Assembly (NCBI GenBank): GCA_030037335.1
Contig: JASHRN010000234.1
Location: forward strand, 19,371-83,370
From: Candidatus Acidiferrales bacterium
GTDB lineage: Bacteria > Acidobacteriota > Terriglobia > Acidiferrales > UBA7541
Length of the DNA: 64,000 nucleotides
Reading direction: 5' to 3'
This document shows, piece after piece, positions 1,479 to 63,811 of this stretch. How positions within the stretch are numbered: position 1 is the first letter of the stretch; each line of letters begins with the position of its first letter. The position numbers and the translations under genes were made by a program. The notes below the pieces were generated by a model. It was given only the letters and a program-made list of their open reading frames with translations, ran no database searches and was not told where the DNA came from.

Positions 1479-3167
1479 ATGGAACTCGCGCAACACACAA
1501 CACAATGGCTGGGATGGCTGGGACGAGTACGGTTCCTGGTCATTTCGTTTCTGCTGGCGGTAGTGTTGGCGGTGCACCAACTGACGCAACTGCCGCTCGT
1601 TGTCAAAGACTTCGTTCCGGTCATTCTCCTGTGGTATTTCCTGGCGATCTGCTTCGTGATTCTGCTGCGCTGGATTCCGCAGGCGCGCTGGCACGCGCCG
1701 TTGCAGATTACTTGCGACATCATTTTGATTACGGGACTGGTGTATTCCACCGGCGGGCACGAGAGCTATTTTATTTCGCTATACCTGCTGGCGATTTTGA
1801 TGGCCAGCGTGCTTTTTGAGCGACGCGGAGTATTTTTGGCGGCTGGCGGCGCGTTTGCGTTGTTAGGAGCGCTGGTCGAATTTACAGAATACGGATTTCT
1901 TCCGCGCACCTCGCTGACTACGCCGACCGCGCGCGCCCTGGAATTCTGGGTGTTCAGCAATCTGATTGGATTTTTTGCGGTGGCCTACCTGGGAAGCCTG
2001 CTCGCGCAGATGCTGCGCAGCAAGGGCGTGGAGCTCGAGGAAAAGCGCGAAGAGCTGCGCGATTTGCAGGCGTTCAACGAGAACATCATCGAGTCGATGC
2101 GCGGAGGCCTGATTACGACGGACCTCGAAGGGAAAATTTTGCTGGTGAACCATGCGGGAGGAGAGATTGCCGGAATTTCGCCGGCGGCATTCATCGGGAA
2201 GCAGATTCGCGAAGTCCTGCCAGGATTCTGGCTGACCGATGCGGATACAGAGTCGGGATTCACCGCATCGCGGAAGGAAGCTGAATTCCACACACCGGCG
2301 GGTGAGAAGAAATACCTGGGAGTCTCGGTTTCGCCGCTGCAAACGGGGCAGCAGGAAGTGAGCGGGTACGTCTTCAGCTTTCAGGATTTGACGGAATTGA
2401 AGCGATTGGAACGAGAAGTGGAAACGAAGAACCGCATGGCAGCGGTAGGACGGCTCTCGGCGGCGATTGCGCATGAAATCCGGCAGCCGCTGACTGCCAT
2501 GACCGGCGCACTGAAAGAGCTGGCGCGGCTCGCGCCTCTCGATGAGGACGACAAAAGACTGGTGCAGATTGTGGGGCGCGAGTCAGAAAGACTGAACCAG
2601 ATCATCACCGATTTCCTGGACTACTCGCGTGACAAGACCTATTCATTTCTCGGCAGCGATGTGCACGTGCTGATCGATGAAGCGCTCACGTTGATTGAAC
2701 GGGAGCAAAGCGCGGGAGGGAAGTACCGCATCGAGAGGCAATTCGCGGTGGAGCGCGCGATGGCGCGAGTGGATCGCGACCGCATCAAGCAATTGATCTG
2801 GAATCTGTGCAACAACGCAATGAGAGCTATGCCGGACGGCGGAACGCTTACGGTCAAGCTGGACGCGGATGAGGAATGGGTGCGCATTGGTATTCGCGAT
2901 ACGGGCGTGGGTCTGGACGCGCGGCAAGCAGCGAAATTATTCGAGCCTTTCCAGTCGGGCTTCCCGAAAGGCACTGGATTAGGGCTGGCGATTGTGTATC
3001 AGGTGGTGCAGGCGCATGGCGGGAAAATTCGCGTCGAATCGGAGCCGGCGCACGGGTCGGAATTCGTGATTGAACTGCCGCGATTGGGCGGCGCGGAATT
3101 CAGGGCGACGCATGCAAATGCGAGGCGCCTCGAGCGGCCGCAACCGGCAGTTGTCGGATGGGAGTGA
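1479..3167 (+). CDS. pilS: Membrane sensor histidine kinase, PilS-like
   Basis: 562 aa. About 6 N-terminal TM helices and a PAS-like middle region. H-box AAIAHEIRQPLTAM, N-box NLCNNAMRAM, G-boxes DTGVGL and GTGLGLAIV. Lies between pilC and a sigma-54 response regulator. Confidence 0.75.
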   Translation: MELAQHTTQWLGWLGRVRFLVISFLLAVVLAVHQLTQLPLVVKDFVPVILLWYFLAICFVILLRWIPQARWHAPLQITCDIILITGLVYSTGGHESYFISLYLLAILMASVLFERRGVFLAAGGAFALLGALVEFTEYGFLPRTSLTTPTARALEFWVFSNLIGFFAVAYLGSLLAQMLRSKGVELEEKREELRDLQAFNENIIESMRGGLITTDLEGKILLVNHAGGEIAGISPAAFIGKQIREVLPGFWLTDADTESGFTASRKEAEFHTPAGEKKYLGVSVSPLQTGQQEVSGYVFSFQDLTELKRLEREVETKNRMAAVGRLSAAIAHEIRQPLTAMTGALKELARLAPLDEDDKRLVQIVGRESERLNQIITDFLDYSRDKTYSFLGSDVHVLIDEALTLIEREQSAGGKYRIERQFAVERAMARVDRDRIKQLIWNLCNNAMRAMPDGGTLTVKLDADEEWVRIGIRDTGVGLDARQAAKLFEPFQSGFPKGTGLGLAIVYQVVQAHGGKIRVESEPAHGSEFVIELPRLGGAEFRATHANARRLERPQPAVVGWE

Positions 3168-3173
3168 GGAATT

Positions 3174-4562
3174 ATGGCGCACATGCTGGTCGTAGATGAC
3201 GAGAAGTCCATCTGCGAACTGTTGGAGATCACGTTTCGTAAGGAAGGGCATCGCGTTGAAGTGGCGAGCAATGGCGACGCGGCGAAGCGGCGGCTCGAGT
3301 CTCAAATCTACGACATCGTTATTTCCGATATTCGTATGCCGGACATGACCGGTGTGGACTTGCTGCGGTATTCAAAGGAAGTATCGCCGGCGACGGTCTT
3401 CATTTTGATTACGGGAGTGCCGACGCTGGGAACGGCGATCGAAGCGGTCAATTCTGGCGCAGACCGGTATGCGATCAAAGGAGACAAGCTGCTGGAGGAA
3501 TTGCGGCCAGCCGTGCAACAGGTGGCGGAAAACTTAAAGCTGAAGAAGGAGGCGGGGATTTTGCGCCGCGAGCTGCGGCGGCTGACCGGGCTCGACAATA
3601 TTGTAGGCACAAGCGCAAAGATGCGCGCGATTTTCGAGTTGATCCAAACCATTGCGCCGCAATCAAGCCGCGTCCTGATTACCGGAGAGAGCGGCACGGG
3701 AAAAGAGCTGGTGGCGCGGGCGATTCACGAAAACAGCGCGCGCACAAAGGCGCCGTTCATCACTATCAACTGCGGCGCTTTTCCAGAGACACTGCTCGAA
3801 TCTGAGCTTTTCGGCTACGTCAAGGGTGCGTTCACCGGTGCGAACGACAACCGCTCGGGACTGTTTCAGGCAGCCGATGGCGGAACACTGTTCATGGACG
3901 AAATCGGGAACATGAGCCCAACCATGCAGGTGAAGCTATATCGCGTTCTCCAGGAAGGCAAGGTACGGCCCATTGGGAGCACAGAAGAAATGGACGTGGA
4001 CGTACGCGTCATCGCCGCGACCAATAAAGACCTGGAGAAGGAGATTGCGGAGGACCGTTTTCGCGAGGATTTGTATTACCGGCTAAGCGTGATTCCCGTG
4101 CACGTACCGGCTCTGCGAGACCGCCGGGAAGATATTCCTCTTTTGGCGCGGCATTTTCTGGAGCGGTTCCGCAACACAACCGGAAAGAAAATTGAAGGCA
4201 TCGAACCAAAGGCAATGGAGCGGCTGGAGGCGTACGACTGGCCGGGAAACGTCCGCGAATTGGAGAATACGATTGAGCGGGCTGTCGCGCTGGAGACGGA
4301 AAAGCGAATTACGCTGGAAGGCTTGCCGGAGCGAATCCTGATGTATTATCAAAACCATTTCGCCGAGCGGCAGGTTCCGGAGGAGGCGACACGCCTGATT
4401 CCCGATGGTGGACTCGACTTGGAGAAACACATTTCGGAAATCGAAAGGGCGTATTTGCTGGGGGCGCTGGAGTGTTCAGGAGGGGTGCGGGTACGAGCGG
4501 CGGAGCTGCTACACATGACATACCGGTCATTCCGACACTATGCCAAGAAATACGAGATATAG
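3174..4562 (+). CDS. pilR: Sigma-54-dependent response regulator, PilR-like (NtrC family)
   Basis: 462 aa. Receiver domain (VVDDE...DIRMPDMTG), AAA+ Walker A GESGTGKE, ESELFGY..GAFTGA motif, C-terminal Fis-type HTH. Both downstream pilin genes carry -24/-12 promoters. Confidence 0.8.
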   Translation: MAHMLVVDDEKSICELLEITFRKEGHRVEVASNGDAAKRRLESQIYDIVISDIRMPDMTGVDLLRYSKEVSPATVFILITGVPTLGTAIEAVNSGADRYAIKGDKLLEELRPAVQQVAENLKLKKEAGILRRELRRLTGLDNIVGTSAKMRAIFELIQTIAPQSSRVLITGESGTGKELVARAIHENSARTKAPFITINCGAFPETLLESELFGYVKGAFTGANDNRSGLFQAADGGTLFMDEIGNMSPTMQVKLYRVLQEGKVRPIGSTEEMDVDVRVIAATNKDLEKEIAEDRFREDLYYRLSVIPVHVPALRDRREDIPLLARHFLERFRNTTGKKIEGIEPKAMERLEAYDWPGNVRELENTIERAVALETEKRITLEGLPERILMYYQNHFAERQVPEEATRLIPDGGLDLEKHISEIERAYLLGALECSGGVRVRAAELLHMTYRSFRHYAKKYEI

Positions 4563-7234: not shown

Positions 7235-7960
7235 ATGGTGGACGATGGCTGGCGTCCTGCTACACTGTTGGTCATGCCCGCTTTGATTACGGCGCTGGCG
7301 ATTCTACTCAGCTCACACCTCAGCGGAGCGCCCCCGATTCCTCAAAATCAGCGAACTGCCCGGCAGATCGCGCAGGCGTTTGATGCGCACTACCATAAGG
7401 TGCGCACATTGGCAGGATATTTTCTCGAGAAATACACCTCAGGAGGGTCAGGTCTGCTAGTCGAGAGCGGGACGGTCTATTTTGAGAAGCCGGGGCGGAT
7501 GCGCTGGGATTACGATTCGCCGGAGAAGAAGCTGTTTTTGGATGACGGCAAGGATATTTGGTTTTACGTTCCTGCGGACCATACCGCGAGCCGCACCCCC
7601 GCGAAGCAGAGCACAGACTGGCGAACGCCGCTGGCTCTTTTAGCAGGAAAGGTGGATCTCGAACGGCTGTGCGGCAGTTTGAGCCTTGGTCAGACCAGCA
7701 CAGCCGAGGCTGGTGATAGCGTCCTGATTTGCAAGCCACGGAAGGCGGATGAAAATGTATTCAGCCAGGTGCTGCTGGAATTGAACTTCCAGAGCCAGCT
7801 TGTTCGGCTGGACATTCAACAGCCGGGCGATTTGGAAATGGATTTTCATTTTGGCGATTGGCACGAGGATGCGCCGATCGAAGCTGCGAAATTTCATTTT
7901 GAGCCTCCGCGCGGTGTTGCCATTGTGGACGACGCGGAATTGGCGAAACAGGCACAGTAG
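7235..7960 (+). CDS. LolA-like outer-membrane lipoprotein carrier family protein
   Basis: 241 aa with a signal peptide (alternative start ATG 7274, MPALITALAILL...). LolA-like core: GYFLEKY...GTVYFEKPGRMRWDYDSPEKKLFLDDGKDIWFYVP. Confidence 0.6.
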   Translation: MVDDGWRPATLLVMPALITALAILLSSHLSGAPPIPQNQRTARQIAQAFDAHYHKVRTLAGYFLEKYTSGGSGLLVESGTVYFEKPGRMRWDYDSPEKKLFLDDGKDIWFYVPADHTASRTPAKQSTDWRTPLALLAGKVDLERLCGSLSLGQTSTAEAGDSVLICKPRKADENVFSQVLLELNFQSQLVRLDIQQPGDLEMDFHFGDWHEDAPIEAAKFHFEPPRGVAIVDDAELAKQAQ

Positions 7961-8254
7961 CCCCGCAACAGTCAGCCAGCCCCTCAGACACTCCCGGATT
8001 CCGGTCTTTCCCTGGAACCTGTGGGAGTCCTGTCGCGCGTGCTTCCGTTTGCCGGGCAACCGCCTTTGCCGCCGAGACGCTCGCAGCCCTTTCGCTCCGC
8101 GCTACCAGCGGCGGCGCGCACGGTCACAGCGCTGTAACTGCGGCCAGTAACGCTTTGGCGGCGCGAAAAGCGCGCGCTGACTGGCCGGCGCTGCGCCTGA
8201 AGGGTAGAGTAAACCATTGCATCCATTGAGGCGGGTGATGGAGGGTAGAGCGTC

Positions 8255-9940: not shown

Positions 9941-11155
9941 ATGGCTGAGTTTGTCTGCAAAGTCGGGGACTCGACAGGGCACGTTTTCCAGCAACTCGAG
10001 ACGGCCCAGAGCGAGACGGAAGCTCGCCAGAAGCTCGCGGACCGCGGCTTTTATGTTTATGGAGTACGGCCGAACCTAAGCGTAGACCGGTTGATCAGGG
10101 GATCTCGGTCCAGCCGGAAGCTGCCTGCGAACGATTTCATGATTTTTAATCAGCAGTTTAATACTCTGATTAAGGCCGGCCTGCCAATTTTGAAGGCGCT
10201 AGATTTGCTGGCGGATCGCGCCGCCCTGCCGAAAATGCGTCCGATTTTGAACGATGTGCGCGGTCGAGTGCGCGAAGGAGCGCTACTGTCGGATGGGATA
10301 GAAGCTTCGGGAATGTTTCCCCCGGTTTATGTCACATCGCTTCGCGCGGGAGAAAAGAGCGGCGATTTAGCGGGCGTGTTAGACGATTACATCGCGTATC
10401 AGCGCACGACGACTGGGCTGAAAAAGAAACTGATCGGTGTGCTGATCTATCCAGCGATCTTAATCATTGTGGCGTCGTGCATTGTTTCCTACCTGGTGAC
10501 TTATGTGATTCCGGAATTCGCGCGTTTGTATTCGGACCTTGGGACGACATTGCCTGCTCCTACGCAATTCTTAATTACGGTTGTGGTGGGCTACCGCGCG
10601 TGGCTGCTGACAGCGGCGGGCTTGGTTGTCTTCGGCGCGATATTTTTATTCCTATGGTCGAGGACGCAGCACGGCGGTGTCGCGGTGGACCGTATGACGA
10701 TGAAACTGCCGATGCTTGGCGACGTGTGGATCAAATTTCAAATGGCGCAATTCACCAGGACGCTGGGAACGCTGCTGAGAGGAGGAACGCCTCTCGTCAC
10801 GGCGCTTTCGACGGCGGCGAATGCAATGCGGAGTCGGCTGGTCGCGGGATCGGTGGAAAAGGCTTCGGAGCGAGTCCGCGAGGGTGCGTCCTTGCACTCT
10901 TCGCTCGCGGAAACGAAAATGATTCCCGATCTGGCGCTGGACATGATTGAAGTGGGAGAAGCTTCCGGCGCGCTGGCGCCGATGCTCTCGAGCGTAGCGG
11001 TTTTCTACGAAGAAGAATCAAACATGAAGACCAGCGCGCTGATCGCCGTGATTGAACCGGCGGTATTGATTGTAATGGCGGGGCTGATCTTTTTCATTCT
11101 GGTTGCGCTGTACCTGCCGCTGTTTTCGATTCAGGCGGGCGGGGCTGGCGGGTAG
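9941..11155 (+). CDS. Second T2SS-F/PilC-family platform protein
   Basis: 404 aa. Duplicated T2SSF segments (FNQQFNTLIKAGLPILKALDLL and FTRTLGTLLRGGTPLVTALST), 3 TM segments. Confidence 0.85.
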   Translation: MAEFVCKVGDSTGHVFQQLETAQSETEARQKLADRGFYVYGVRPNLSVDRLIRGSRSSRKLPANDFMIFNQQFNTLIKAGLPILKALDLLADRAALPKMRPILNDVRGRVREGALLSDGIEASGMFPPVYVTSLRAGEKSGDLAGVLDDYIAYQRTTTGLKKKLIGVLIYPAILIIVASCIVSYLVTYVIPEFARLYSDLGTTLPAPTQFLITVVVGYRAWLLTAAGLVVFGAIFLFLWSRTQHGGVAVDRMTMKLPMLGDVWIKFQMAQFTRTLGTLLRGGTPLVTALSTAANAMRSRLVAGSVEKASERVREGASLHSSLAETKMIPDLALDMIEVGEASGALAPMLSSVAVFYEEESNMKTSALIAVIEPAVLIVMAGLIFFILVALYLPLFSIQAGGAGG

Positions 11156-11160
11156 GAATT

Positions 11161-12801
11161 ATGGCGGTCACAAAGGCGACAAATAAGGAAATCCATCTGG
11201 AGCCGTTGCACGACGAAAACGTTGAGCGCGAGCGCACGCAGAAACTCGCCGAGCGTTATCGCGTGCCGTTCATCGATCTGGCAGAGCAGCAGATTGATCC
11301 GGAACTTTTCCGCTCGATTCCTGCAGAGCTGATGTTTCGCTACAACTTTGTGCCGCTGGAGTCCCGGGATCACTCGCTGGTAGTGGTTGTGTCGGACCCA
11401 AGCCAGTTGCTGCTGAATGACGAGTTAGCGTTGCTGCTGGGAAAGAAGCTGACGATCAAAGTTGCGACCTCGACGCAGATCGCTGATCTGCTAAAGCGCA
11501 CCGAGCAGTCGCAGCGCGTGCTGGACCAAGCGACGGAAGGCTTCACGCTGCAAGTGGTAAGCGATGAGGACAGCGACGAAAACATTTCCATGGAGAAGCT
11601 GGCGCAAGCGGACAGCGGCGTCAGCCCGGTGGTGCGCTTGGTGGACACGGTGATCTTTACGGCGCTGGAGCGACGCGCAAGCGACATCCACATTGAGACG
11701 CGCAATACGGAAGTGGCCGTGAAGTACCGAATCGACGGAGTGTTGCAGTACGCCATGCAGCCGCTGGCGAAAGAATGGCATTCGACGATTCTGTCGCGCA
11801 TCAAGGTGATGAGCGAGCTGGATATTGCGGAGAGACGCGTCCCGCAAGACGGGCGCTTCCGCGTTCGATATAAGGGCCGTTTCATTGATTTTCGCGTTTC
11901 GGTGATGCCGTCGGTCCACGGCGAAGATGCCGTTCTTCGTGTGCTGGACAAGGAAACGCTGAGCGAAAAATTCCGGAATTTGACTTTGGACGTGGTGGGA
12001 TTCGCGGAAGAGGATTTGCGGAAGTTTCGCCGGTACATTCATGAACCTTATGGAATGGTGCTGGTGACCGGACCGACTGGCTCGGGGAAAACGACGACGC
12101 TTTACGCCGCGATCAACGAAATCAAGACCGACGAAGACAAGATCATCACCATTGAAGATCCCGTGGAATATCAGGTGAGCGGAATCACGCAGATTCCGGT
12201 GAATGAAAAGAAGGGCCTGACTTTCGCTCGCGGGCTGCGTTCGATTCTGCGGCACGACCCGGACAAAATCATGGTTGGCGAAATTCGCGACCACGAAACC
12301 GCGCAGATCGCCATTCAATCGGCGCTGACCGGGCATTTGGTGTTCACAACGGTGCACGCCAACAATGTGACTGACGTAATCGGACGTTTCGTGAACATGG
12401 ACGTGGAGCCGTACAATTTCGTCTCCGCTCTGAATTGCATTCTCGCGCAGCGACTCGTGCGCGTGATTTGCCCGAGTTGCAAGAGAGAGGCCAAGTGTTC
12501 ACCGGAGATTCTGCGCGAATCGGGAATCAATCCGGAAGAGTGGGGCAATACTCCGCTGTACGAGGGCGCAGGCTGCCTTGAGTGTTCTGGCAGCGGCTTT
12601 CGCGGGCGAACTGCGATTTCCGAACTGCTGGATTTATCCGACCGCATTCGCGAAATGATCATCGATCGCCGTCCGACTTCAGAAATCAAACGCGCAGCGA
12701 AGGAAGAGGGGATGCAGTTCCTGCGGGAATCGGGAATTGCGCGAGTACGCGAGGGGATCACAACGCTCCGCGAGATCAATAAGGTGACGTTCATTGACTA
12801 G
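11161..12801 (+). CDS. PilB/GspE-family secretion ATPase
   Basis: 546 aa. N-terminal T2SSE_N/MshEN-like domain, Walker A GPTGSGKTTT, Walker B IMVGEIRD, tetracysteine motif CPSCK...CLECSGSG. Confidence 0.9.
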   Translation: MAVTKATNKEIHLEPLHDENVERERTQKLAERYRVPFIDLAEQQIDPELFRSIPAELMFRYNFVPLESRDHSLVVVVSDPSQLLLNDELALLLGKKLTIKVATSTQIADLLKRTEQSQRVLDQATEGFTLQVVSDEDSDENISMEKLAQADSGVSPVVRLVDTVIFTALERRASDIHIETRNTEVAVKYRIDGVLQYAMQPLAKEWHSTILSRIKVMSELDIAERRVPQDGRFRVRYKGRFIDFRVSVMPSVHGEDAVLRVLDKETLSEKFRNLTLDVVGFAEEDLRKFRRYIHEPYGMVLVTGPTGSGKTTTLYAAINEIKTDEDKIITIEDPVEYQVSGITQIPVNEKKGLTFARGLRSILRHDPDKIMVGEIRDHETAQIAIQSALTGHLVFTTVHANNVTDVIGRFVNMDVEPYNFVSALNCILAQRLVRVICPSCKREAKCSPEILRESGINPEEWGNTPLYEGAGCLECSGSGFRGRTAISELLDLSDRIREMIIDRRPTSEIKRAAKEEGMQFLRESGIARVREGITTLREINKVTFID

Positions 12802-55260: not shown

Positions 55261-55353
55261 ATTGCCCAGTTATAGGTCGAATGTTTTCGAGGGGGCCAGT
55301 GCGAGGGTGATGTTCGGAAACGGACGAAGTGGCGAAAAAAACCGCGAAAAAAC

Positions 55354-55695
55354 TCGATTAGAGACGACCTCGGCCTTTTGTTTTCAGTGAGTTGGCTCAA
55401 TTTCTAATTTCCCATAGAAACTCGATTAGAAAATGCAGTGGCGAGTGGCTGGTGACGAGTGGCGAGGAACGGCCAGAAGGGCTTACGCGGGCGAAGCGTC
55501 CCGGCCAAGCGCAGGCCGGGGCAGGCGTAAGAGGAAGAAGATGCCGAAGAGGCCCTCTTAGGAAAATACGAAAAGGAGTGTCGATTAGAAACGACGAAAG
55601 ACGCGTATGTGTGTCGATTAGAAACGGGATCGGGTGCGTGTTTTGTGTAAGTTAGGTTGAATTCTAATTTTTTGAGGGTGTGTCGATTAGAATTC
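55354..55695. repeat. Five copies of the TCGATTAGA motif plus two AT-rich inverted repeats
   Basis: TCGATTAGA at 55354, 55422, 55581, 55614 and 55683; three copies are extended to GTGTCGATTAGAA. IR1: TTTCTAAT (55401-08) / ATTAGAAA (55425-32). IR2: GAATTCTAAT (55659-68) / ATTAGAATTC (55686-95). Confidence 0.8.
55438..55465. repeat. Heptanucleotide tandem array (GTGGCGA-like x4)
   Basis: GTGGCGA GTGGCTG GTGACGA GTGGCGA. Confidence 0.8.
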
Positions 55696-55711
55696 CTGCC
55701 ACGGCGGGCAA

Positions 55712-55746
55712 GCTGGAGGCTGGGGGCTGGAGGTTTGAGGCTGGAT
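55712..55746. repeat. Heptanucleotide tandem array (GCTGGAG-like x5)
   Basis: GCTGGAG GCTGGGG GCTGGAG GTTTGAG GCTGGAT. Confidence 0.8.
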
Positions 55747-55833
55747 GGTTCGCGCCCGCCTCGGCGGGCAGGCGCAAGGCGGCGCGAATCGGAAGGCGCT
55801 ATTTTCTCCATTACTGCACTCAAGTCCCGTCCT

Positions 55834-55863
55834 TAAAAAGGCGAAAGCCGCCGGAAGGCGGCT
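55834..55863 (-). terminator. Rho-independent terminator of the TMEM175-like gene
   Basis: Minus strand reads AGCCGCC-ttcc-GGCGGCT followed by TTCGCCTTTTTAAGG, 83 nt after the stop at 55946. Confidence 0.65.
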
Positions 55864-55945
55864 CGTGGCGCAGTTTGATTCTGCTTGCGTGCGGATCAAT
55901 GTATACCATTGAGATAACAGTTTGTCAAGGCGAAAATGGCGGCGG

Positions 55946-56530
55946 CTAGGCATCCTGACGGGAGATGCGGGATTCGATGCGGCGGTCGGGGACGAGCCAG
56001 ATGATGGCAACGGCGATGAAGCAAATCCACGAAATCCACGGGCGGACGAAGGCCAGAGGAATCGCCGGGACGTAAATGGCGATGGAGATTTTACCTTTGC
56101 GGTCGCTGCCAATGGAGATTGCCAGAGTGGAGGCTTTTCCGTGCAAGGCGAGAAGCGTCCGGACGAGGATGTAGTAGGCGATAGCCGCAAGGAGCAAGAC
56201 GATTCCGTAGAGCGCGACGGGACAGGAGGCGAAATGATCGTCGCCCATCCAGGCGGTGGTGAACGGAACGAGCGAGAGCCAAAAGAGAAGATGGAGATTG
56301 GCCCAGAGCGTCGCGCCGTTGACGCGTTCGACGGCGTGCAGCAGGTGATGATGATTGTTCCAGTAAATGGCGATGAAGACGAAGCTGAGAACGTAGCTGA
56401 GGAAAATGGGCGTGACGGGGCGAAGCGCGGCGAGCGAGGCGCCCTGCGGTGGCTTCATCTCGAGGACCATGATGGTGATGATGACGGCGAGGACGCCGTC
56501 GCTGAAGGCTTCGAGGCGGTTTTTGGTCAT
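55946..56530 (-). CDS. TMEM175/DUF1211-family potassium channel
   Basis: Start ATG 56530 with AGGAG upstream. MTKNRLEAFSDGVLAVIITIMVLE carries the family FSD motif. 6 TM segments. The ORF-track start 56677 is repeat-derived. Confidence 0.8.
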   Translation of the reverse strand: MTKNRLEAFSDGVLAVIITIMVLEMKPPQGASLAALRPVTPIFLSYVLSFVFIAIYWNNHHHLLHAVERVNGATLWANLHLLFWLSLVPFTTAWMGDDHFASCPVALYGIVLLLAAIAYYILVRTLLALHGKASTLAISIGSDRKGKISIAIYVPAIPLAFVRPWISWICFIAVAIIWLVPDRRIESRISRQDA

Positions 56531-56571
56531 GCAGTCTCCTGCGGCAGATGATACCTGAGAAGCAGCCGCGA

Positions 56572-56599
56572 GTGGCGAGTGGCAGGGAAAGCTAATCGA
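56572..56599. repeat. GTGGCGA heptamer x2 plus an inverted TCGATTAG motif
   Basis: GTGGCGA GTGGCAG (56572-56585), then CTAATCGA (56592-56599). These are the same modules as in the 55.3-55.9 kb intergenic region. Confidence 0.75.
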
Positions 56600-56670
56600 T
56601 CTCACGGGTAAGAAACTGAAAGTTGCGGCGACGCAAGGCGAGCGGCGACTTTCTTGTTTTTTGTGCAGAC

Positions 56671-56699
56671 TTGACAAACAGCCTTGAACTGTTTACTGT
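56671..56699 (+). promoter_or_regulatory. Sigma-70-type promoter of the GntR-ABC operon with an overlapping inverted repeat
   Basis: TTGACA (56671-76), 17-nt spacer, TACTGT (56694-99). The spacer contains ACAG-N7-CTGT. ATG at 56720. Confidence 0.5.
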
Positions 56700-56719
56700 A
56701 CTAGTTGAGTAGCACACCG

Positions 56720-57127
56720 ATGCTCTTTCGAATCCATCCCGACTCTGGGACACCGATTTACGTACAACTGATGGAGCAGGTGATGCACGCCATCGAAACG
56801 GGCGCGCTGCGCCCCGGCGAGCAGTTGCCGGCGATCCGCGCGTTGGCGGAAGACACGGTGACAAATCCCAACACTGTGGCGAAGGCGTACCGCGAACTGG
56901 AACACGAAGGGGTCATCGAGCTACGGCAGGGTCTGGGCGCCTACGTGCGAGCAGGTGTTTCTTCCGCTCGTGAGGCCGAGGCGATGAAGCAAGCGCATCG
57001 GGCGATGGGAGCGGCCGTTGCGGTCATGCGGAAGCTGCGATTATCGGAGGCGTCGATGCGCCGGGTCTTCGAAGCCGAGCTGACGCGCGATCAAGAGGTT
57101 CGCGAAGCAGTTTCTTTGAGGAGATAA
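56720..57127 (+). CDS. GntR-family (YtrA-like) transcriptional regulator
   Basis: Winged HTH: LPAIRALAEDTVTNPNTVAKAYRELEHEGVIELRQGLGAYV. Short C-terminal domain. Followed by ABC genes. Confidence 0.85.
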   Translation: MLFRIHPDSGTPIYVQLMEQVMHAIETGALRPGEQLPAIRALAEDTVTNPNTVAKAYRELEHEGVIELRQGLGAYVRAGVSSAREAEAMKQAHRAMGAAVAVMRKLRLSEASMRRVFEAELTRDQEVREAVSLRR

Positions 57128-57131
57128 CTTA

Positions 57132-58031
57132 GTGCATTCGGAACCGGCTGTTATTTCGGCTGAAGGGCTCAGGAAACGGCTGGGCAGCATTGATGCCGTT
57201 GCCGGCCTCGACCTCGCGGTGCCCCAAGGATCCATTTGCGGGTTCTTGGGCCGCAACGGCGCTGGAAAGACCACCACGATCAAGATGTTGATGGGCATGA
57301 CTCGCCCTGACGGCGGCGAGGGGCGAATCTTCGGGGAGCCGATCGACCACGAAGTTGCCAGCGTGCGCATCCGGCAAAAGACCGGCTTCGTCGCCGAGGT
57401 TAAGGAGTTCTATCCGTTCTTTACGGTTCAGCAGATGATCGACTTCACCCGCGCCTTTTATCCTCAGTGGCGCAACGACTGGGAACGACGATGCTTGCGA
57501 GAATACGAATTGCCGCTCGAGCGGAAGGCAGGAAAACTCTCGAAGGGCATGGGTTCGAAACTGGCGCTGCTTCTGGCCTTCTCCCGCGGAGCCGAGCTGC
57601 TGATTCTCGATGAGCCCACCGATGGTCTCGATCCCATTGCGATTGAGGCATTCCTGCAACATGTAGTGGCGCTTGCTGGCGAAGGGCAAACCATTTTCTT
57701 TTCCTCTCACCAGTTGCAGGAGGTCGAGCAGGTTTGCGACAGGGTTTGCCTGATTGACCGCGGCAAGGCCGTTCTCGAAACCGATCTCGATGAAGCAAAA
57801 ACGAGGTTTCGCAAGGTATCGATCACCTTTCCCGATGCCGTTCCCGAGCGCCTCTTCGAGGGAACAGGCGTCGGGCGGCTGAAAGTACGCGGCCGCTCCG
57901 CCTCGCTCCTGGTGAACGGCGACGTTGAGGCCGTCGCCGCGCGGGCGCGGCAGGCCGGCGCCACAGAAGTCGATTTCGCACCAGTCAGCCTGAAAGAAAT
58001 TTTCCTGGAAACAGTGGGAGGAGAGCAATGA
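57132..58031 (+). CDS. ABC transporter ATP-binding protein
   Basis: 299 aa, GTG start. Walker A GRNGAGKTTT, signature LSKGMGSKL, Walker B LLILDEPTDGLD. Confidence 0.9.
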   Translation: MHSEPAVISAEGLRKRLGSIDAVAGLDLAVPQGSICGFLGRNGAGKTTTIKMLMGMTRPDGGEGRIFGEPIDHEVASVRIRQKTGFVAEVKEFYPFFTVQQMIDFTRAFYPQWRNDWERRCLREYELPLERKAGKLSKGMGSKLALLLAFSRGAELLILDEPTDGLDPIAIEAFLQHVVALAGEGQTIFFSSHQLQEVEQVCDRVCLIDRGKAVLETDLDEAKTRFRKVSITFPDAVPERLFEGTGVGRLKVRGRSASLLVNGDVEAVAARARQAGATEVDFAPVSLKEIFLETVGGEQ

Positions 58032-58744
58032 TTGCCGCAATTTGGAGAAAACACTGGATGGAACTTTGGAAACGCTTGGTTTTCTTCACAGCCGCGGAGC
58101 TCCTTGCTGGGATAGCCTCCTCGGTCGAATTAACCGCCTTTCACGGACACGGACCCCGTCAGGCCCACGCTCTTCTCCTTGCTTTTCTCCTCGGTTTTCT
58201 CGCTATGTTCTCCGCCATCGCCATCGTAGTATTTCCCGGGCAGCTTGGCGGTACAGGGCTTAACACCACCAGGGGCCTCCATACGCAAACCGGCCCCGAC
58301 CCGTCACTTCTCTTCACGCTGTCGCTCCCGATTCGAAGGCGCGTTCTATTTCTCTATCGATCTGCCTTTGGATTATTGGCGATAGAAGCCGCGGTAGCCG
58401 TCGCGTTGGGAATCGATTGCTTGCTCCTTGCGCACTCAGGCGTGCCATGGCACATGCTTGTACCCGCGCTATGGGTTTTGCCCGCCCTTGCGCCGTTCTA
58501 TTTTCTGGATAGCTTCTTATTGATGTGGTTCAGTGAGGGGACGATAGTGGTGATACAGGCGCTCGTCGTCGCACTTCTTATCGTCGCGCTGGCATTGCTC
58601 TACCGCGTCTACTTCCACGCGGGGAAAATGGCCGGGATTGCTCTGGGACACTTCGCTCCGCTCCTCGGCGTGCTGGCCGCGTGCCTGCTCTCCACGGCTT
58701 TTGCTGCAACCACGGTCTGGTGCCTAGATCGGCGGAATTACTGA
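58028..58744 (+). CDS. ABC-2-type-like membrane protein (hypothetical permease)
   Basis: 238 aa, about 6 TM segments. 4-nt overlap with the ATPase gene. Confidence 0.55.
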   Translation: MIAAIWRKHWMELWKRLVFFTAAELLAGIASSVELTAFHGHGPRQAHALLLAFLLGFLAMFSAIAIVVFPGQLGGTGLNTTRGLHTQTGPDPSLLFTLSLPIRRRVLFLYRSAFGLLAIEAAVAVALGIDCLLLAHSGVPWHMLVPALWVLPALAPFYFLDSFLLMWFSEGTIVVIQALVVALLIVALALLYRVYFHAGKMAGIALGHFAPLLGVLAACLLSTAFAATTVWCLDRRNY

Positions 58745-58762
58745 TGCACCCCGAAGCCGAAA

Positions 58763-58784
58763 AGGAGAAGCGACAACTTCTCCT
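58763..58784 (+). terminator. Candidate terminator hairpin after the ABC operon (no U-tract)
   Basis: Perfect 8-bp stem AGGAGAAG-cgacaa-CTTCTCCT, 19 nt after the stop. No downstream T-run. Confidence 0.3.
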
Positions 58785-58944
58785 ACCTGAAGATTAGTGC
58801 TTGTGTTGAGCGTGGCTAGCTGAAAATAGTAGTTCCTGAGCACGAATTACCGAGCGCGGAATCCTGCACCTACTCGATTCTATTCGCGTCAGCTAAATTC
58901 CAACACTTGACAAAATCTCAGATTAGATATATTCCAAATAGTTC

Positions 58945-59370
58945 ATGGATGGCGAGGCGATAAAACGGTCGCTGGAGGAGAGGGGATTGCGGTGCACTCC
59001 GCAGCGCTATGCAGTGATGGCGTTTTTGATGGAGCAGAACAGCCATCCTACAGCTGCGGAGACGTTCGAGGCGGTGAATCGCGTCGATCCGCGTTCGTCC
59101 CGTGCCACGACCTACAACAATCTGCGAGACTTGGTGAAGGCGGGATTGGTGCGTGAAGTGGCTGTTGAGGGCCGGGCTGCGCGATACGATGCGCAAGGTG
59201 TGCGGCATCACCACTTCATTTGCGACCGCTGCGGCGAGGTTGAGGATGTGGACTGGTACGAAGTCCGGAAGCCTGCATCGAGGGCACTTGGCAAGCGGTA
59301 CGTTCGCGAATGCGAAGTTATTTTTCGCGGGCTTTGCGCGAGGTGTGCAAGGCGGCGCAGTTCCCGGTAA
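58945..59370 (+). CDS. Fur-family regulator (PerR-like by context)
   Basis: 141 aa. Winged helix. HHHFICDRCGEVEDV and CARC zinc motifs. Immediately upstream of katG. Confidence 0.8.
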   Translation: MDGEAIKRSLEERGLRCTPQRYAVMAFLMEQNSHPTAAETFEAVNRVDPRSSRATTYNNLRDLVKAGLVREVAVEGRAARYDAQGVRHHHFICDRCGEVEDVDWYEVRKPASRALGKRYVRECEVIFRGLCARCARRRSSR

Positions 59371-59448
59371 GCGTCACAGCCATTCGCGGGGTTTTTTGTT
59401 GGTAGTTCTGTTTGATCGCAATTATTTTGATTATTCCAAGGAGCATGA

Positions 59449-61668
<2,220 letters not shown>

Positions 61669-62098
61669 CCGCCATCTGCGCAGGCGGCGGCTGGGTTTCG
61701 GGATGACAACGTTAGGCAAATGTGACGGCTGCGCGAAGAAGATGCCGCAGAACTTCGTAGAAGGCAGAGAAGCTCGAGGCAAGATTCTTCGCTTCGCTCA
61801 GAATGACAACAAGAATTATGTAATGGCGACTTCTTCGTAGGCGGCGGAGACGGCGCGCAGGAGTTCGGGCCGACCATGGTGGACCCCATCCTTCGCAACA
61901 ACGGCGAAGGATGGGGCACCCGCAAAGGCAAAATGCAGATTCCTCGTCGCGAAGAACGCTCCTCGGAATGACAGAAAAAACGGAAGCAGGCCCTCACCTT
62001 CATCGCGCAAACCCGGCGCGCCGGGTTCGGGATGACAGAAAACGTCAGGTGATGGCGACTTCTTCGTAGGCGCCGAAGACGGCGCGCGTGTATGACGT
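61669..62098. repeat. Repeat mosaic between the convergent katG and mutase genes
   Basis: Two pseudo-copies of the mutase 3' end (61816-61866, 62045-62098). Four TC(G/A)G(G/A)ATGACA motifs (61698, 61798, 61963, 62027). A 13-bp perfect hairpin (61884-61916). An 18-nt palindrome AACCCGGCGCGCCGGGTT (62010-62027). Confidence 0.85.
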
Positions 62099-63811
62099 CT
62101 AGGTAATCGCAACTTCCTCGTACGCCCCAAACACATCCCTCAAGCAGTCGCAGATTTCGCCGAGGGTGGCGTAGGTTTTGACGGCTTCGTAGATGAAGGG
62201 CATGAGGTTTTCGGAGCCTTCGGCGGCTTTGCGAAGAGCGTTCAGGCGGCGGTCGACTTCGGCGGAGGAGCGGTCGGCGCGGAGCTTTGAGAGGCGCGCG
62301 GCCTGGCGATGCGCGACGGTTTCGTCGATTTGCAGAATGTCGATGGGCTTTTCTTCGGCGATGAAATCGTTGACGCCGACGATGATTTTTTCCTTGCGGT
62401 CAACTTCCACCTGATAGCGATAGGCGGCTTCGGCGATTTCACGTTGAGGATAGGAGCGTTCGATGGCGTCGACCATGCCGCCGAGGGCGTCGATTTTTTC
62501 GATGTAGTCCCAGGCGCCGCGCTCGACGTCGTCGGTGAGTTTTTCGACGAAATATGAGCCGCCGAGAGGATCGACGGTGTTGGTGACGCCGCTTTCGTGG
62601 GCGATGATTTGCTGGGTGCGGAGCGCGATGGTGGCGGCAAATTCGGTGGGGAGCGCCCAGGCTTCGTCGAGAGAATTCGTGTGGAGAGATTGCGTGCCGC
62701 CCATGACCGCGGCGAGGGCTTGCAGCGCGGTGCGGACGACGTTGTTGTAAGGCTGCTGCGCGGTGAGAGAGCAGCCCGCGGTTTGCGTGTGGAAGCGCAG
62801 CGCCCAGGAGCGAGGATTTTTTGCACCGAAGCGTTCGCGCATGACCTTGTACCAGATGCGGCGGGCGGCGCGATATTTGGCGATTTCTTCGAAGAAGTCG
62901 CTGTGAGCGTTGAAGAAAAATGAAAGGTGGGGCGCGAAATCGTCGACATCGAGACCGCGGCGAATGGCCCAGTCGACGTATTCGATGCCGTCGCGAAGAG
63001 TGAAGGCGAGTTCCTGAATGGCAGTGGAACCGGCTTCACGAATGTGGTAGCCGCTGATGGAAATAACGTTGAATTTGGGAGTTTGGCGCGCGCCGAATTC
63101 GAACGTGTCGATGACGAGGCGCATCGAAGGGCCGGGCGGGTAAATGTATTCCTTCTGTGCGATGTATTCCTTGAGGATGTCGTTTTGAATTGTGCCGCCG
63201 ATGGTTTTCCAGTCGGCGCCTTGCTTTTCGGCAACGGCGAGGTACATGGCCCAGACAACAGCGGCGGGAGAATTGATGGTCATCGAAGTGGTGACGTTGG
63301 CGAGCGGAATTTGATCGAAGAGGACTTCCATGTCGGCGAGCGAGCTGATGGCGACGCCGCATTTGCCGACTTCGCCTTCGGAGAGAGCGTGGTCAGCGTC
63401 GTAGCCCATGAGAGTTGGAAGGTCGAAGGCGACGGAAAGGCCGGTCTGTCCCTGCGAGAGCAAATAGCGGGAGCGCTGGTTGGTGTCTTCGGCGGTGCCG
63501 AAGCCAGCGAACTGGCGCATGGTCCAGAGGCGTCCGCGATACATCGTGGGATGAATACCGCGCGTGTAAGGAGGCTGGCCGGGGTAGCCGAGATTTTTTT
63601 CAGGCGACCAGTCGGCGAGATCGGCAGGGGTGTAAAGGCGATTGATGGGGAAGTCGGAGATGGTGGTGAATTTTGCGGCGCGTTCGGGAGATTTTGTGAG
63701 CGTGGGCTCGAGGACTTTTTGCTGCCATTCGAGTTCGGCGGGAGAGGGCTTGCGGTGCGATTCGGGATCGGCACTTGTGGTGACGGACGACGTGCGATTT
63801 TCCTTGGTCAT
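62099..63811 (-). CDS. Methylmalonyl-CoA mutase-family catalytic (large) subunit
   Basis: Start ATG 63811 with GGGAG upstream; the ORF-track start 63952 is unlikely. 570 aa. MM_CoA_mutase pattern ([25 protein letters not shown]). No fused B12 domain. Confidence 0.85.

Follow-up and report, generated by a model that had tools for sequence, protein, structure and literature searches.

Stacked 3' ends behind a methylmalonyl-CoA mutase gene in Candidatus Acidiferrales probably record serial gene-end displacement by recombination with foreign DNA

We analysed a stretch of 64,000 nucleotides from a Candidatus Acidiferrales bacterium (contig JASHRN010000234.1, hereafter the window), in which a methylmalonyl-CoA mutase gene is followed by two further copies of its own 3' end. 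We consider it probable that recombination with foreign DNA has serially displaced the mutase 3' end here, on the border of a hypervariable region. The first-pass annotation of this DNA had reported three stacked gene ends, here called A, B and C, and our analysis reproduced them base for base at the positions given. All feature coordinates below follow the numbering of the 64-kb window, and the mutase gene and the copies downstream of it are read on the minus strand.

62099..63811, minus strand: methylmalonyl-CoA mutase gene of the N-terminal-domain type, 570 aa, with its stop codon TAG at 62099-62101
62099-62152, minus strand: copy A, the 3' end in use
62102..62146, minus strand: patch A, the last 15 codons in use (TGC TTG AGG GAT GTG TTT GGG GCG TAC GAG GAA GTT GCG ATT ACC), delimited by blastn and codon usage
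62088..62098, minus strand: 11-nt linker ACGTCATACAC between the stop codon of A and fossil B, read from the sequence
62045-62098, minus strand: copy B region (54 nt), abutting A directly and in frame with it
62045..62087, minus strand: fossil B, the displaced native 3' end, GCGCGCC...ATCACC followed by TGA (nhmmer, E=2e-9)
61816-61869, minus strand: copy C, the third mutase-end copy
61816..61869, minus strand: fossil C, an older displaced 3' end that is decaying, with two non-synonymous changes (nhmmer, E=1.5e-6)

The window mutase shares 92-96% protein identity over its full length with 570-aa mutases of Candidatus Acidoferrales (Acidobacteriota) that carry PF01642, and an exact-protein look-up found the window protein itself not to be on record. 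DNA of close relatives was obtained via exact-protein look-ups; the mutase loci of the window's clade are referred to as L001-L008, L029 and L090-L094, next to the window locus. The set used for profile comparison holds 87 oriented sequences, namely 86 loci and the window. In order to compare the gene-end copies, we used blastn, an nhmmer nucleotide profile, a six-frame motif scan and Tandem Repeats Finder (TRF).

The three copies end in three different stop codons. Over the 11 codons shared by A and B, 8 of 33 nt differ and all eight differences fall at third codon positions, a pattern with a chance of (1/3)^8 = 1.5e-4, while the longest identical stretch between the two copies does not exceed 5 nt. 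B and C differ at 5 positions in their last 42 nt and are thus much closer to each other than to the end in use, as had been noted in the first pass. The same annotation described the differences as purely synonymous, which is correct for A against B and does not extend to C, where two amino-acid changes (F->S and G->A) were found. Within the window, the 20-mer GCCTACGAAGAAGTCGCCAT occurs only in B and C (0.02 occurrences expected), and a six-frame motif scan of the 64 kb detected only the three mutase-end copies, all of them directly behind the mutase. The repeat formed by B and C covers 61 nt at 80% identity and spans the gene end, the stop codon, the spacer and the first 11 nt of a repetitive extragenic palindromic (REP)-like element. 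B and C lie 229 nt apart, and this spacing is not a regular repeat unit because TRF finds no tandem array in the region.

The comparison with relatives tells the native end from the imported one. The functional gene ends of L001, L002 and L004 are exactly that of B (GCGCGCCGTCTTCGGCGCCTACGAAGAAGTCGCCATCACC; 100% identity), in agreement with the earlier proposal that the fragments were once functional coding sequence, and it is supported that B and C are true relics of functional mutase 3' ends. With L004 the identity of B reaches 63 nt, including the TGA and 20 further bases into the REP-like element, and we regard B as native because of this identity over both the gene end and the post-stop sequence. 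At the protein level, the closest relatives terminate as B does, and A reads CLRDV like more distant homologues. When the window was aligned with the relatives' genes by blastn, homology broke off exactly after TGC GAC and restarted at the GCGCGCC of B. Fossil B also holds a perfect hairpin, GCGCCG-TCTT-CGGCGC (62069-62084, inside the codons for R-A-V-F-G-A), which is present in the functional ends of L001, L002 and L004, carries one mismatch in C and is destroyed in patch A.

The codons of patch A are foreign to the gene that uses them. C-ending codons account for 2 of the last 14 codons but for 325 of the 556 codons of the gene body (Fisher p=0.0014); AGG and GGG, both present in the patch, have zero uses in the gene body, and TTG, GTG, TTT and GAG, also present in the patch, are nearly unused there. 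The best look-alike of patch A was found in L070, with 88% identity over 43 nt. L070 and L087, which belong to more distant lineages, have naturally A-like ends, and their whole genes show the same codon habits as the patch. The A-type end follows the pattern TTGAGG..GTGTTYGGG..TACGAGGAAGT.GC.ATTACC; metagenome scans for this end and for any tandem pair of gene ends gave 0 matches each. Judged from these sequence comparisons, A is the import, because its codon usage is foreign and its nearest natural look-alikes are in the distant L070 and L087, and B and C are the displaced resident ends. The direction is opposite to that assumed in the first-pass annotation, in which the fragments had landed from elsewhere.

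The same architecture was found in an independent assembly, L005, whose mutase has 95% protein identity. There, an A-type end, DSLRSVFGSYEEVAIT-TAG, is followed by ACGTCATAC, which occupies the place of the window's 11-nt linker, and then by the GCG that starts a B copy (B'). The ends of the two copies are 55 nt apart there instead of 54, which puts the second copy out of frame. A further fossil of the native 3' end, 195 nt long (2983-3177), lies in L005 beyond an inserted creatininase gene; its reading frame is interrupted by two TAG stops, both arising from TAC -> TAG changes at Tyr codons. L007 has an A-type end and no B; a decayed C-type fossil lies at +148 (~150 nt further on), orthologous to the window's C and decayed further than it. 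In L002/L003, a 20-nt fossil lies on the far side of a peptidase-creatininase insert. With the nucleotide profile, no extra gene-end copies were detected in ~75 Acidobacteriota loci that are more distant and were covered with 10-kb flanks, nor in six loci added at a later stage; in the 87-sequence profile search, significant copies stood solely downstream of the mutase and were confined to the window's clade. The three carriers of an A-type end (the window, L005 and L007) are not sisters by their gene bodies, L007 being closest to L029, which has a B-like end. Patch A, which is thus distributed patchily among non-sister lineages, must therefore have moved between lineages by recombination.

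A search with the A'-type C-terminal 45 aa also returned 97 short open reading frames (ORFs) of the mutase C-terminus (27-79 aa; P0121-P0217), which could have indicated widespread fossils; they were dropped as evidence. The two long-contig cases that were checked (L088 and L089) are not fossils but parts of genes split by frameshifts, in long-read assemblies that are prone to error.

We propose that in each displacement the incoming DNA, a homologous mutase 3' end with its trailing sequence, would have been joined within the last 40-200 nt of the gene. The left junction would have formed through homology or microhomology inside the gene (TGCGAC in the case of patch A), and the right junction would be illegitimate, with the donor-side ACGTCATAC set against the resident GACGCCATGC at the right edge of patch A. 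The window's linker ACGTCATACAC resembles the native GACGCCAT with a 4-5 nt insertion. The resident end would not have been deleted but shifted downstream, where it would have lost its function. Selection may have retained only the events that restored an intact conserved terminus, which would explain why the differences between A and B are exclusively synonymous. The order of the copies would then give the order of the events: C, decayed and common to L007, would be the oldest, B would be the native end that is still used by the closest relatives, and A, 45 nt imported from a lineage whose codons end in G/T, would be the most recent. As candidate molecular routes, homology-facilitated illegitimate recombination, short-patch double illegitimate recombination and a single crossover with a circular intermediate may be envisaged. 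Serial allelic replacement by recombination, one of the two possibilities named in the first-pass annotation, fits these comparative data.

The spacer downstream of the gene ends contains further repeats:

61935..62037, minus strand: two REP-like elements after fossil B, TGTCATCCCGAAC...GGTGAGGGCCTGC and TGTCATTCCGAGGAGCG...CGACGAGGAATCTGC, recognised by motif matches
61884..61916, minus strand: perfect 13-bp hairpin CCCCATCCTTCGC / GCGAAGGATGGGG upstream of fossil C, from an inverted-repeat search
61697..61808, minus strand: a further pair of REP-like elements, beginning at 61808 and 61708, on either side of a GAAGTTCTGCGGCATCT repeat, up to the katG stop codon, recognised by motif matches

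The REP-like family is defined by a 5' TGTCATYCYGAR, a variable GC-rich hairpin and a 3' GAGGRAYCTGC. All four copies in the 64-kb window lie within this one spacer, at 61697-62037 (0.05 expected). The density of the family is ~0.02 per kb in 1.6 Mb of related loci, and copies are clustered behind the mutase in several relatives (L002 10250-10560, L004 3615-3735 and L029 11725-12250). In L004 and L029, elements orthologous to those behind fossil B follow the functional stop codon. A search of the region against Rfam returned only sub-threshold chance matches and no family for the REP-like elements. The 13-bp hairpin CCCCATCCTTCGC/GCGAAGGATGGGG occurs twice in L007 (~11727-11760 and 11785-11818), close upstream of the C-type fossil. 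Another family of short repeats has the core GAAGTTCTGCGGCATCT within ...CGCAGAGCTTCGCG...; it lies between REP-like elements at 61715-61770 in the window and is also found in L002 (~10325-10385 and 10610-10660). At first glance this repeat resembles a fourth gene-end copy, a possibility that was rejected. Nothing exceptional was found in the folding of the spacer as a whole (z = -1.46).

Beyond the fossils lies cargo that differs from lineage to lineage:

55261..61668, strand not assigned: lineage-specific cargo between the fossils and the Amidohydro_3 gene, from the ORF listing

The Amidohydro_3 gene (~53.6-55.3 kb in the window) is conserved in the clade. Its distance from the mutase is ~140-250 nt in the 'empty' loci L006, L090 and L091, 1.4-4.9 kb in others and 6.9 kb in the window. 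The window's cargo ORFs read as katG, a Fur-like regulator, an ABC ATPase with a membrane protein, a GntR-like regulator and a TMEM175-like protein, these names being taken from the translations and not from Pfam. The TMEM175-like ORF is backed by its counterpart in L002 (PF06736), and the membrane protein has no Pfam match. In the relatives, the segment holds a creatininase gene with or without an S41 peptidase gene (L002, L005), CreD (L004), a KTSC-domain protein (L001) or a restriction-modification pair (L093). Relatives with identical last codons diverge from the stop codon on and use TAA, TAG or TGA. The hypervariable region starts at the mutase stop codon, and the stretch from the mutase to Amidohydro_3 is a hot spot whose cargo is unrelated from lineage to lineage. 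In L070 and L087, the gene of the B12-binding partner directly follows the mutase; in the window it is ~10 kb away (~51.4-51.8 kb).

The first-pass annotation proposed to look in related genomes for an integrated element or an integrase between the mutase 3' end and katG, and none was found in the loci examined here. No integrase or transposase was seen among the window ORFs in the 6.9 kb between the mutase and Amidohydro_3. Neighbour-gene Pfam families were inspected in 14 further close-clade loci, L001-L006 and L090-L092 among them, and no integrase family was found among the called genes next to the mutase; the sole recombinase gene seen is a small PF00239 resolvase, 7.5 kb downstream, in L093/L094. 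L007, L008 and L029 were covered for recombinases by ORF listing and a partial Pfam scan only, and the eight unannotated neighbourhood ORFs that were scanned for domains contain no recombinase domain. A degenerate FG..YEEVAIT pattern gave 0 matches in the viral contigs of IMG/VR, and no mimic of the mutase gene end was found in phage and plasmid records.

In L001, an uncalled ORF of 137 aa (7731-8144) starts 21 nt after the mutase stop codon and shows a Cys/His pattern reminiscent of HNH. Together with a GIY-YIG-like ORF of 147 aa in L029, it was considered as a homing endonuclease beside the mutase; this candidate was rejected, neither ORF having a Pfam or NCBIfam match. In PHROGs, the L001 ORF has a weak endonuclease match only (phrog_2340, E=0.018).

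Several explanations other than serial displacement were weighed. Site-specific integration, put forward in the first pass in its attP form, would involve elements whose attP mimics the mutase end, inserted by a tyrosine or serine recombinase and later lost by deletions that leave att-like fossils. Stacked copies with different stop codons and synonymous divergence would be expected from it, as would fossils flanking inserted genes such as those of L002 and L005 and a switch from native to A at the same codon in three lineages, and the resolvase gene of L093/L094 could be counted in its favour. However, no integrase lies between the window mutase and Amidohydro_3 or among the genes called beside the mutase in the 14 further loci, none was seen in L007, L008 and L029 by ORF listing and a partial Pfam scan, no gene-end mimic is found in viral contigs, phage or plasmid records, and the 5' boundaries of the fossils are not constant, lying at ~-41/-50 (B), ~-45 (C) and ~-195 (L005), with 20 nt left in L002. 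Moreover, the inserts have no identical flanking core repeat, the adjacency of A and B is not expected from site-specific excision, and no fossils were found in the ~75 more distant genomes sharing the conserved gene end; we thus consider this origin quite unlikely. An unrecognised site-specific process, in which a trans-acting recombinase or a free-standing homing-type nuclease recognises the native hairpin end and a recoded, target-immune gene-end cassette of ~50 nt is installed, would fit because three non-sister lineages share the same switch point, the hairpin is destroyed in patch A and B is unusually well preserved; nevertheless, we hold it to be very unlikely. Local tandem duplication by slippage or unequal crossing-over, via the GCGCGCC(G) common to the gene end and the post-stop REP and with the upstream copy later overwritten by a foreign allele, could account for the B/C unit: this unit (61 nt, 80%) passes the stop codon and takes in the initial 11 nt of the REP-like element, both fossils start at GCGCGCC, the sequence before B and C resembles the 5' half of the REP (GTCATAC..., GGTCGGCCCGAAC), and REP1 contains CCCGAACCCGGCGCGCCGGG. 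Yet the sequence before B and C is about as similar to GACGCCATG/GACGCCCTC of the gene itself as to the REP, which makes its reading as a REP remnant ambiguous, duplication alone does not explain why A is synonymously saturated and foreign-coded while B is pristine, and the 195-nt fossil of L005, which an inserted gene separates from the mutase, is no tandem copy. Duplication is therefore an unlikely explanation, though not a negligible one.

A functional arrangement was judged highly improbable. In one form, suggested by the in-frame position of B in the window and by the unusual conservation of B and B', read-through of the TAG would add an 18-residue C-terminal repeat, as the first-pass annotation had envisaged; the frame is lost in L005 with its offset of 55 nt, and B is missing from L007. 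The copies could also be RNA or regulatory elements, but no Rfam match exceeds the threshold and the folding z-score is -1.46. An assembly artefact, with two strain variants of the gene end concatenated, is conceivable in that the relatives are all metagenome assemblies and the window plausibly is one too. We find it hardly credible, since the A-B junction recurs in the independent L005 with its own substitutions and another junction length and an A-type end is present in a third assembly, L007. Two other candidates were rejected: a diversity-generating retroelement, as 7 of the 8 A/B differences fall on a C of copy B and 1 of 8 on an A, all 8 being synonymous, and a dispersed repeat family unrelated to the mutase, as the three window copies all lie behind the mutase and those in the 87 sequences do likewise.

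Some observations weigh against serial displacement by recombination. The actual donor of A was not found, its closest look-alike being only 88% identical over 43 nt. The switch from native to A occurs at the same codon in all three carriers, which would fit a site-specific process too; it also fits a single origin followed by spread. B and B' differ at 1 of 41 nt against a gene-body divergence of ~10%, and a neutral relic as old as the split between the window and L005 should have diverged more; this high conservation suggests either a recent spread or a homogenisation by recombination. In the window, very little cargo separates one end from the next: A and B are 11 nt apart, and B is separated from C by 229 nt of REP-like repeats. 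Finally, the katG cargo lies beyond C, and no fossil lies behind it.

As the closest natural pattern described, displacement of C-terminal coding ends is known from rhs genes (Jackson et al. 2009, PMC2935791), and sequential displacement was described for type VI secretion system (T6SS) effectors, under a model similar to homology-facilitated illegitimate recombination (Kirchberger et al. 2017, PMC5361080). Like the mutase locus, the arrays of rhs, contact-dependent inhibition (CDI) and T6SS genes combine a constant gene body with a string of displaced 3' ends that share short core homology, are laterally acquired and have the newest end proximal. They also have no integrase, and finished arrays spread by ordinary homologous recombination; recombination of a circular intermediate or a mechanism like homology-facilitated illegitimate recombination are the routes proposed for them. 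The order of ends in such displacement arrays is found here, with A foreign and in use, B native and intact, C older and decayed, and the fossils of L002 and L005 distal to the inserts. In contrast, the tips of the rhs, CDI and T6SS arrays are different toxins accompanied by immunity genes, and their diversity is selected, whereas the pieces at the mutase locus are 40-200 nt long, encode the same ...YEEVAIT peptide and belong to a housekeeping enzyme. Between the mutase end copies we found no immunity-like ORFs, only REP-like repeats.

Homology-facilitated and short-patch double illegitimate recombination have been demonstrated experimentally in transformable bacteria (PMC3240628; bioRxiv 10.1101/2023.11.22.568220). 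As is proposed for the mutase locus, foreign DNA is anchored by homology or microhomology on one side or on both, the resident sequence is kept and short clustered substitutions or indels result, and the microhomologies at the edges of patch A (TGCGAC and GACGxCAT) fit this pattern. Illegitimate recombination of this kind is known from laboratory selection, whereas the lineage of the mutase locus is uncultivated. Islands in tRNA and tmRNA genes and the composite staphylococcal cassette chromosome (SCC) arrays at rlmH are examples of integrative elements by which the 3' end of the target gene is restored. Like the mutase locus, they show a surrogate 3' end fused to the gene, a displaced native end and serial copies with synonymous differences and varied stop codons, but they depend on an integrase, on identical direct repeats and on a crossover core that is constant, and none of the three was found here. 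In fungal mitochondria, mobile endonuclease ORFs bring along a foreign C-terminal piece and leave the original downstream, as in Allomyces atp6. That case resembles the mutase locus in its hybrid gene, its synonymously diverged foreign 3' end and the native end just downstream, but it needs an endonuclease ORF between the two ends and the window has none.

The array behind the mutase seems to be a neutral scar with isofunctional ends and no sign of a benefit. It is a tidy but unsurprising by-product of recombination at a variable spot of the genome and reveals no new mechanism or function. At the same time, it offers a clean natural example of a conserved housekeeping gene that survives the splicing of foreign DNA into its end, and every such event in the past has left the previous end behind as a dated relic. 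The terminal codons of a gene may differ in origin from the rest of it, which is a warning for annotation. In these uncultivated soil Acidobacteriota, the relics show where a recombination hot spot has its edge, and in which direction and relative order the transfers took place.

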